The notes under the pieces were generated by a model that had not been told where the DNA came from, did no database searches, and saw only the letters and a list, made by a program, of their open reading frames with translations. Source: Candidatus Omnitrophota bacterium (GTDB lineage: Bacteria > Omnitrophota > Gorgyraeia > Zapsychrales > Fredricksoniimonadaceae). From it: DNA of 60,048 nt. The stretch spans positions 1-60,048 of the forward strand of contig JAYTXU010000019.1 of the NCBI GenBank assembly GCA_043742785.1, written 5' to 3'. A program made the translations under genes and the position numbers. Every line of letters starts with the position of its first letter. Position 1 is the first letter of the stretch. This document shows, piece by piece, positions 16,583-27,312 of this stretch.

Positions 16583-16641
16583 TGTCATGCCCGCAAAAGC
16601 GGGCATCCAATTTCTAGATTCCCGTTTTCACGGGAATGACA
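16583..16641. repeat. TGTCA-tagged palindromic dimer (dRS3/REP-like)
   Basis: TGTCATGCCCGCAAAAGCGGGCATCCA-N5-TAGATTCCCGTTTTCACGGGAATGACA; the right unit fits ATTCCC-N8-GGGAAT and supplies the folK stop codon. Confidence 0.85.
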
Positions 16642-19578: not shown

Positions 19579-20505
19579 TTATTTAATTTTTAACCCGTAA
19601 GCTGTTAATGCTGCTCTTAATTTAGTAAGATTATCCTCTTCCATCTCACACATCGGAAGCCGCATGGCTAAGGAACACAAACCCATCAACGATGCTGCTG
19701 TCTTAACAGGAATAGGATTAGTTTCAATAAATAAAGCATCAATCAACGGAAGAAGTTTCTTATTGATCGCAGCTGCGGTTTGCTTGTCTCCCTTATTAAA
19801 AGCATTCACTAAACCTGAAACGTCCTTTGGCACAATGTTAGAAGTAACAGAAATGATGCCTACTCCACCCATGGTCATAATAGGTAAGGTCAAGGCATCG
19901 TCTCCTGAAATCAATAAAAAATCTTTTGGACACAGTTCACGAATTTTTTTCATCTGCTCTAAATTACCTGAAGCTTCTTTAACACCAATAATATTCTTAA
20001 TACCAGCCAATTTGGCCATCAAATCTGGTTCAATATTCTTTCCCGTGCGTCCGGCGATATTATAAAGAATAATAGGAATATCAGCAGACTCTGAAATAGC
20101 CTTGTAGTGAAGATAAATACCTTTATTGGTCGGCTTATTATAGTAAGGAGTCACAACCAGCACCGCATCTGCTCCCACCTTAGCTGCATACTTAGCCATG
20201 TGGACTGCTTCTGACGTAGAATTAGAACCGGCACCTGCAATCACAGGCACTCTTTTGGCCACTGTCTCAACGCAAATTTTAATAACATGCTCATGTTCCT
20301 TCTCAGAAAGAGTCGGTGATTCACCGGTTGTTCCACAAGGGACAACCCCATGAATACCTTGAGCAATTTGCCACTCGATCAATTTCTTATAAGCAGCCTC
20401 ATCAATAACACTATCTGTTCCGCCAGAGGCGGATCCGCCACGATTTGTGGCGGAAAAAGGTGTGACCAATGCTGTGAAAGCGCCATAAAATTTCGTTCTA
20501 TCCAT
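19579..20505 (-). CDS. dapA: 4-hydroxy-tetrahydrodipicolinate synthase, carrying a 12-aa palindrome-derived insertion
   Basis: 'GTTGESPTL', 'PYYNKP', 'YNIAGRTG', 'GVKEA', 'SGDD', 'NPIPVK'. Confidence 0.98.
   Translation of the reverse strand: MDRTKFYGAFTALVTPFSATNRGGSASGGTDSVIDEAAYKKLIEWQIAQGIHGVVPCGTTGESPTLSEKEHEHVIKICVETVAKRVPVIAGAGSNSTSEAVHMAKYAAKVGADAVLVVTPYYNKPTNKGIYLHYKAISESADIPIILYNIAGRTGKNIEPDLMAKLAGIKNIIGVKEASGNLEQMKKIRELCPKDFLLISGDDALTLPIMTMGGVGIISVTSNIVPKDVSGLVNAFNKGDKQTAAAINKKLLPLIDALFIETNPIPVKTAASLMGLCSLAMRLPMCEMEEDNLTKLRAALTAYGLKIK
20419..20454. repeat. In-frame 36-nt double hairpin inside dapA
   Basis: TCCGCC-AGA-GGCGGA plus TCCGCCAC-GATTT-GTGGCGGA; encodes SATNRGGSASGG. Confidence 0.85.
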
Positions 20506-27218: not shown

Positions 27219-27312
27219 TGTCATGCCCGTGAAAACGGGCATCCATAACAGAATTAATTCTGCTTTAGATTCCCGCCCTGCCTACCGGCAGGCAGGTTTC
27301 GCGGGAATGACA
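27219..27312. repeat. TGTCA palindromic dimer with a nested CCTGCC...GGCAGG element
   Basis: Left unit 27219-27245; right unit 27266-27312 interrupted at 27277-27296 by CCTGCCTACCGGCAGGCAGG. Confidence 0.85.

Follow-up and report, generated by a model that had tools for sequence, protein, structure and literature searches.

A 36-nucleotide double hairpin in frame in dapA of an Omnitrophota bacterium: a probable case of insertion by a family of miniature palindromic elements

Introduction

Small palindromic repeats that lie in frame in genes are already known as a kind, from Rickettsia palindromic elements (RPEs), intragenic repetitive extragenic palindromes (REPs) and mitochondrial GC clusters. 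Here we describe a 36-nt insert, made of two abutting hairpins, in dapA, the gene for 4-hydroxy-tetrahydrodipicolinate synthase, of a Candidatus Omnitrophota bacterium. The gene lies in a stretch of 60,048 nt (positions 1 to 60,048 of contig JAYTXU010000019.1, GenBank assembly GCA_043742785.1), which is called the window below.

RPE-1 measures about 100-150 bp and is restricted to Rickettsia. RPEs stand in frame in housekeeping genes that are apparently functional (summarised in PMC3733652). REPs are imperfect palindromes, 20-40 nt long, with a tag (GTAG or CGTC) that stays unpaired; they are mostly extragenic and specific to a species or genus (Di Nocera et al. 2013, PMC3733652). Genes that contain an intragenic REP stay open, replication and repair genes included, and more than half of the inserts are dimers (PMC3733652). 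In yeast mitochondria, the target dinucleotide AG is present in two sets around each GC42 element (Wu and Hao 2015, PMC4478555), and mitochondrial double-hairpin elements are credited there to Paquin, Laforest and Lang (2000).

The dapA insert belongs with a set of repeats, called TCCGCC units below after their stem, that has likenesses to all of these. It shares with RPEs the in-frame insertion of a palindrome in intact housekeeping genes. A parallel with RPEs had been drawn in a first-pass annotation, which was made from the letters of the window alone; it holds for this feature and is otherwise an analogy, because the present element is 15-36 nt long (about 5-10 times smaller), is unrelated in sequence, occurs in many phyla and is also found in an RNA gene. 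With REPs and their paired form, REPINs, the units have in common that they are short GC-rich hairpin repeats, often arranged as inverted dimers, sometimes intragenic and thought to be moved in trans. They differ from them in that the modules are 15 or 21 nt long, have no GTAG or CGTC tag, are flanked by T-rich (5') and A-rich (3') bases, and are mainly intragenic in phase 0, with the same 15-nt stem in many phyla. Mitochondrial GC clusters and double-hairpin elements are likewise tiny, GC-rich, mobile, non-coding hairpins in AT-richer genomes, single or in tandem, with no known enzyme; those are organellar, however, while the present units are chromosomal and bacterial and enter at a TT|AA step without target duplication. 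The family is thus distinct by its size of 15-21 nt, by the lack of a tag and of target duplication, by its mainly intragenic phase-0 location and by a stem that is identical across phyla. In the library of papers searched, none gives the sequences of the units or reports inserts like these from the candidate phyla radiation (CPR) or Omnitrophota, and the family is apparently undescribed.

The explanation that we consider likely is that a family of miniature palindromic insertion elements supplied both modules of the 36 nt in dapA, that is, a tiny selfish hairpin tolerated in the loop between strand beta1 and helix alpha1 of the enzyme.

Results

Two hairpin modules in dapA

The dapA gene occupies 19579..20505 on the minus strand (Pfam DHDPS PF00701, E = 2.5e-99). 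The insert adds 12 codons (18-29) in frame between Phe17 and the native 4-residue loop, and the sequence is exactly as the first-pass annotation had described it. On the 5' side, the codon TTT of Phe17 (20455..20457, minus strand), which ends the conserved TPF motif, is the native flank of the insertion point (the ...TT| side). It is followed by a 21-nt hairpin module with an 8-bp stem and a 5-nt loop (20434..20454, minus strand; coding strand TCCGCCAC-AAATC-GTGGCGGA), which encodes SATNRGG, residues 18-24 of DapA, and then, without a gap, by a 15-nt module with a 6-bp stem and a 3-nt loop (20419..20433, minus strand; coding strand TCCGCC-TCT-GGCGGA), which encodes SASGG, residues 25-29. The codons ACA GAT AGT GTT (20407..20418, minus strand) come next and give TDSV, the native 4-residue loop, diverged from the usual T-x-N-G. 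The coding strand thus reads TTT|TCC GCC ACA AAT CGT GGC GGA|TCC GCC TCT GGC GGA|ACA, translated as F[SATNRGG][SASGG]TDSV-ID, and the peptide stretch that spans the insert is SATNRGGSASGG. On the plus strand, 20419-20433 is TCCGCCAGAGGCGGA and 20434-20454 is TCCGCCACGATTTGTGGCGGA, which read as TCCGCC-AGA-GGCGGA, then TCCGCCAC-GATTT-GTGGCGGA. The window has two matches to the pattern TCCGCC-N3-9-GGCGGA where 0.01 would be expected, and none of 100 shuffles reached two. Folded as single-stranded DNA, the 36-mer forms two hairpins (-16.1 kcal/mol, z = -6.1).

Removal of the 36 nt had been claimed to restore the normal spacing of DapA. This is borne out by insert-free orthologues, which read TPF-T(N/S/A)NG-ID from 87% down to 44% identity; the added loop is thus missing from distant orthologues too. 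At the position of the insert, 105 of 120 database homologues have the 4-residue loop only. TPF is invariant across 31 DapA sequences, empty sites read CCxTT(T/C)|ACx, and the loop after the insert is TDSV, TDSS, ASNS or TG in the insert-bearing lineages as against T(N/S/A)NG in the empty orthologues. These comparisons show that the pair entered dapA as DNA, exactly between TTT (Phe17) and the next Thr codon, at a T|A step and with neither duplication nor loss.

In the best PDB match of DapA (3si9, E = 3.7e-83), the insert corresponds to a pure gap of 11 residues just after TPF. An AlphaFold2 model (predicted local distance difference test, pLDDT, 91.2 overall) gave a TIM-barrel in which the insert sits between beta1 (8-13) and alpha1 (36-48), with only residues 22-28 below 50; modelling of the loop position had also been proposed in the first pass. 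The features of the DHDPS family are present, namely the Pfam domain, the TIM-barrel fold, the Schiff-base Lys and the catalytic Tyr, Thr and Arg: at an offset of +15, the invariant T60, Y122, Y148, R153 and K176 match the catalytic and interface residues T45, Y107, Y133, R138 and K161 of the E. coli enzyme. As modelled, the 12 added residues therefore form a low-confidence loop from strand beta1 to helix alpha1, and all catalytic residues are retained. The enzyme presumably still works, the insert being a tolerated passenger. The neighbouring ORFs give the cluster order dapB-dapA-dapF-lysA.

Copies in the source genome and in other bacteria

The source genome (G000; such handles are our own) is an Omnitrophota metagenome-assembled genome (MAG) of 1.9 Mb and 37% GC, AT-richer than the GC-rich single or paired hairpins that sit in it. 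It contains five exact TCCGCC-N3-GGCGGA units, while about 0.01 are expected, and 7 units in all. The copies outside dapA are a pair in phase 0 in a gene for PriA (F[SAKGGSASGG]K) and three intergenic ones. Among 41 relatives, copy numbers of the 15-nt unit ranged from 0 to 34 and 27 genomes had at least one; the reversed control was near 0. The exact 30-mer was present in 17 of 151 genomes across the phylum (control 0), in patchy bursts (14 copies in G012, 16 in G109, 11 in G050); G004, G005 and G038 also count as burst genomes. When one genome per prokaryotic species was scanned, the 30-nt pair was present in at least 120 contigs. Among the matches listed, all were MAGs, from Patescibacteria, Omnitrophota, Kiritimatiellae, Lentisphaeria, Ignavibacteria, Chloroflexota and others, and some of the contigs, obtained with differing sequencing technologies, exceeded 0.6 Mb. 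The exact 21-mer occurred in 34 contigs, all from Omnitrophota, and in long ORFs it mostly reads SATNRGG. The 30-mer was found in just 2 of 2.9 million viral contigs and had no match in PLSDB plasmids or INPHARED phages, which come from cultured organisms. The earlier proposal of a frame-preserving mini-element family that lengthens protein loops is supported by these copies in the source genome, its relatives and many phyla. It would have been refuted had the genome lacked further copies and had distant orthologues possessed the loop without palindromic DNA; neither turned out to be the case.

The 15-nt module usually occurs as a near-palindromic pair of 30 nt, mostly in phase 0 (SAxGGSAxGG), and the 21-nt module usually adjoins either a second 21-nt hairpin, (C/T)CCGCC-AA-N5-TT-GGCGG(G/A), or a 15-nt unit; the fetched loci comprised 126 pairs versus 16 singles. 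Perfect 30-nt palindromes centred on GGATCC made up 16 of 85 pairs, and the loop complementarity of paired units was far above chance. The dapA insert had been taken for a mini-element stacked twice. It is indeed a two-module copy, but its hairpins are different modules, one of many phyla (15 nt) and one seen only in Omnitrophota (21 nt), and pairing is the rule, not a matter of two chance stackings. At least 10 identical copies lie in different, unrelated genes of G012, six identical copies of one 21-mer variant in G034, and many perfect-palindrome pairs in G109; decayed copies exist as well. To judge from the bursts of identical copies, the spread of the units is replicative.

The same 36 nt were found at the same site in two further independent assemblies (G015/L001 and L275, GCA_900206355.1), and a third (G007, isolate nzgw308) has a dapA insert with 2 substitutions, in loop bases only. 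Since it recurs in this way, the insert is not an assembly artefact. Formation of a quasi-palindrome in place, through slippage or template switching, is hardly credible to us, and so is an assembly or library error, even though template switching is a known source and perfecter of short palindromes and all carriers are MAGs. Local template switching would copy neighbouring sequence and not a constant motif, while the same 15-, 21- and 30-nt sequences are found at hundreds of unrelated loci, from many studies and sequencing technologies, the reversed-pattern controls are close to 0, and four independent assemblies have the dapA insert.

Three side observations concern individual copies. In the PriA homologue with the SAKGGSASGG pair (G000:C14:16020-17645, L047), only the 3'-DNA-binding and C-terminal Pfam domains of PriA were matched, and no helicase-core family at E <= 0.001. 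In one Kiritimatiellae MAG, the 30-nt pair ends a MITE-like (miniature inverted-repeat transposable element) repeat of about 200 nt (GTCATCCTGAACGCAGTGAAGAGCC...CTCGGAATGACAAC...) with at least 3 copies (L057:4587-4616, L057:6408-6437 and L102:7325-7354), so that the pair can hitch-hike in larger repeats. Finally, three Ignavibacteria proteins that end in ...SG(V/I)YFY have a pair at a shared position, although the loops differ: SAKGG-SAYGG, SAVGG-SASGG and SAKGG-SASGG (L081:6021-6050, L094:390-419 and L124:2838-2867). These ends may be C-terminal sorting domains of the type IX secretion system.

Constraint on the stems

The window, G015 and L275 share all 36 nt without a difference, although identity between their dapA genes is 0.77-0.78 overall and 0.50-0.53 at third codon positions; at gene-wide identity, the chance of 36 identical nucleotides is 0.778^36, or about 1e-4. 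Across four dapA lineages, none of the 24 stem bases has changed, although eight of them are synonymous positions, while the residues just 3' of the insert vary by lineage (TDSV, TG, ASNS). The 21-mer variants vary almost solely in the inner 9 nt. In diverged units that lie beside canonical ones, 9 of 18 changed stem pairs were compensatory. Because the stems are invariant, changes are compensatory and copies are also found in an RNA gene and in spacers, the constraint acts on stem pairing or recognition and not on the peptide.

This bears directly on the idea that the SAxGG(SAxGG) peptide itself is a selected flexible linker and that palindromy is a by-product of codon choice. The strong phase-0 bias (see below), the favoured orientation on the coding strand (34:9) and the linker-like residues, rich in Gly, Ser and Ala, would fit such a linker. 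The 8 stem codons, however, show no synonymous variation in the four dapA lineages, although third positions elsewhere are about 50% identical; the DNA in question is also present between genes and inside a gene for RNA, variants with an in-phase TGA are confined to spacers, and most DapA proteins lack the peptide. We regard this explanation as close to refuted and give it very little weight.

The invariance of the stems at synonymous positions and the compensatory changes would also be expected if the hairpins were functional nucleic-acid sites under selection, for instance the binding site of a conserved dimeric protein or an mRNA or RNA structure, that spread by their usefulness. A conserved binding partner would also fit the identity of the stems across phyla, and a unit is kept in RNase P RNAs that are just about 60% identical overall, in a set chosen by exact match and hence biased. 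Against this, the distribution is patchy, close relatives having anything from 0 to 34 copies, most congeners lack the units in dapA and RNase P, the locations appear random across unrelated genes with no common genomic context found, and there are decayed copies as well as bursts of identical ones. We consider selected sites of this kind improbable.

At the TPF| site of dapA, three states were observed: empty, a single unit (SASGG, SAQGG or SAGGG) and the 21+15 pair. An approximately unbiased (AU) test rejected a single clade of insert-bearing dapA genes with three DNA sequences (p = 0.012) and with four proteins (p = 0.035), while a single origin was not rejected with two insert-bearing taxa (p = 0.22). 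The AU rejection is moderate and does not decide between several gains and a single gain followed by losses. New insertions into the few sites that permit them, the exchange of one unit for another already in place and short-patch recombination may each have played a part.

Target sequence, phase and other permissive sites

Filled and empty orthologous sites were compared for dapA, six G012 genes, a solute-binding-protein (SBP) gene and RNase P RNA. The insertions were exact, the target bases being neither duplicated nor lost; in the six G012 genes, comparison with the G000 orthologues showed that the flanking Lys is native. In the flanks, T was preferred at both -1 and -2 (0.71-0.86 at -2) and A at both +1 and +2 (0.86-0.92 at +2). 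As the values were equal in spacers and genes, this points to a TT|AA-like target at the DNA level.

Inside ORFs of at least 150 aa lay 88 of 142 arrays (pairs and single units), with 74, 7 and 7 in phases 0, 1 and 2, respectively. In long ORFs, 54% of TTAA sites are in phase 0, 46% in phase 2 and none in phase 1, since TT|AA could follow codon position 1 only if there were a TAA stop. The two remaining phases being about equally available (54:46), the excess of phase 0 (p = 2e-13) calls for a further filter, most likely selection against Pro-rich or Arg-rich readings. Preservation of the frame is thus partly due to a module length that is a multiple of 3 and partly to selection and target bias. 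Genes that stay open across the insert include dapA, the PriA gene, an adenylate-kinase-like gene and others. The K...S orientation on the coding strand was favoured 34:9; in spacers, unit orientation relative to GC skew was 7:3, which is not significant.

Other sites were found in several states of filling. The SBP gene site had 15+15, 21+15 or three different versions of 21+21. Seven exact copies of the 21-mer lay inside the RNase P RNA gene, in which the site GGATT|AGAG is empty in the source genome and most relatives and is otherwise filled by 21+21 (G007, G029 and others), 20+21 (G038) or a decayed but compensated 15+15 (G005). We rejected the idea that the 21-mer has its master copy in RNase P, as the site there is empty in the source genome and most congeners. 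As a separate observation, the RNase P RNA varies in length from 309 to 676 nt among 41 related genomes (L242-L270, L213), largely in the P9 region just upstream of GGATT|AGAG, where unrelated hairpins of very different sizes are found.

Search for a mobilising enzyme

The units could be elements of the REP/REPIN type, moved by solitary Y1 transposases (RAYT-like, where RAYT stands for REP-associated tyrosine transposase; IS200-type HUH enzymes) that would insert single-stranded hairpins 3' of TT without target duplication. The inverted pairs of modules, the absence of target-site duplication and the short T-rich 5' target all agree with this. So does the presence of Y1 transposase genes (PF01797) in 33 of 41 relatives and in 13 of 13 genomes with at least 5 units, and these genes have no TnpB partner, as in RAYTs. 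The presence of Y1 correlated weakly with the unit count (Spearman 0.38, p = 0.013; Fisher p = 0.03), though neither test was corrected for phylogeny or genome size, and Y1 was also present in 10 of 14 genomes with no units. No TCCGCC unit was found within roughly 1-2 kb of the Y1 genes of G000 (two), G012 (two), G004 and G038; two of the inspected genes were flanked by other hairpins and the rest by none. The Y1 proteins of the source genome are 235 aa long. Furthermore, TCCGCC units are without a GTAG or CGTC tag, and their stems are identical across phyla, while REPs co-diverge with their RAYT. We therefore judge this explanation unlikely, although it is less so than that of selected sites.

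The hairpins seen beside Y1 genes were a GTAG-tagged GTAGAGACGCAAC-ATGT-TGCGTCTCTAC in G012:C21 (L235:1730-1757) and inverted GGGGACA...TGTCCCC copies in G038:C10 (L274:1422-1441 and 2116-2137). Classical REP-RAYT pairs thus seem to coexist with the TCCGCC family in the relatives.

The 'peel-and-paste' movement of IS200/IS605 elements is a likeness at the level of a mechanistic model only: there too, target-site duplication is absent, the ends are hairpins and insertion occurs 3' of a short motif. No TnpA is linked to the TCCGCC units, however, the units are far below the size of known IS200/IS605 derivatives, and a lagging-strand orientation bias was not significant for them. Two other enzymes were considered and rejected as required factors: TnpB, because it is nearly absent from the relatives (present in 3 of 41, absent from 38), and IS110, because it is absent from several high-copy genomes.

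Other palindromes and long ORFs of the source genome

A second, commoner palindrome family, CCTGCCTGCCGGCAGGCAGG (20 nt), is represented in the window at 27277-27292 (flanks about 27268-27310) and in G000 by 32 listed copies of its 16-nt core, or 51 by a 6+4+6 count, several of them inside very long ORFs. The copy in the window sits within the loop of a different hairpin (gattcccgc-[CCTGCCTACCGGCAGGCAGG]-tttc-gcgggaatgaca). A third hairpin family, TGTCA-TTCCCGC-GAAA-GCGGGAA-TCCAGA (window 16619-16636), has 15 copies in G000 and is often beside, or interrupted by, the CCTGCC palindrome; because of these interruptions, the source genome can be said to carry nested mini-palindromes. Outside the window, G000 has giant ORFs in C2 (about 56077; about 18,893 codons) and C32 (about 19433; about 12,553 codons), each with a short GC palindrome.

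Discussion

We favour the explanation that the dapA insert consists of two modules of a selfish miniature element. Such a hairpin would be non-autonomous and copied by a factor that acts in trans and recognises the invariant 6-bp GC stem; this factor would place one or more hairpins at TT|AA-like sites. Copies would be tolerated where they read as a flexible linker, in the Ser-Ala-x-Gly-Gly phase, and selection would then purge those in the other phases, which are rich in Pro or Arg, and those at intolerant positions. As few sites would be permissive, the TPF loop of DapA, the SBP loop and the GGATT|AGAG site of RNase P would be refilled repeatedly by different versions of the modules.

Several observations weigh against this explanation. 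No enzyme is linked to the units: Y1 genes also occur in 10 of 14 genomes without units, and those inspected have other hairpins, or none, at their flanks. The well-supported branches of a 72-taxon DapA tree, by themselves, force no more than one gain. The dapA insert is nearly frozen, loops included, and selection for a function could likewise be the cause. The protein database had no DapA above 90% identity, so that near-identical filled and empty alleles were not available, and neither a transposition intermediate nor a strain-level presence/absence polymorphism was seen in the assembled genomes and the protein database. Finally, the stems are identical across phyla, which is unusual, as mobile repeats normally diverge along with their host.

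A bolder version of the same explanation, which we put forward only tentatively, is that no smaller autonomous unit of DNA mobility than these hairpins has yet been seen in bacteria. On this view, cassettes of 15 and 21 nt, which a 6-bp stem alone would mark for recognition, would be written into TT|AA without target duplication by a class of enzyme other than RAYT, TnpB or IS110, and would be exchanged or overwritten at the same permissive sites (as 15+15, 21+15 or 21+21). That class of enzyme would be shared horizontally among Patescibacteria, Omnitrophota and other uncultivated phyla, and the cassettes would have been selected to be stop-free and to encode linkers suited to essential genes of compact genomes.

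New with respect to the systems described before are the Omnitrophota-specific 21-nt module, the insertion in RNase P RNA and the refilling of the same sites by different versions, as well as the conservation of stems at the nucleotide level with compensatory change, the TAA-based argument on phase and the negative test of RAYT flanks. For the window alone, the consequence is modest: DapA gained a flexible loop of 12 residues and is probably still functional. More widely, the modules show where essential enzymes and RNase P RNA naturally permit insertions, and work on uncultivated bacteria could be misled by them in alignment, gene calling and phylogeny. Since distant phyla share the identical sequence, horizontal DNA exchange by an unrecognised route or enzyme is indicated among the nanobacteria of groundwater and sediment. 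If the modules are truly mobile, they would set a new lower size limit for mobile DNA, of about 15 nt, and would be an example of selfish DNA that persists in gene-dense, reduced genomes by being harmless when translated.

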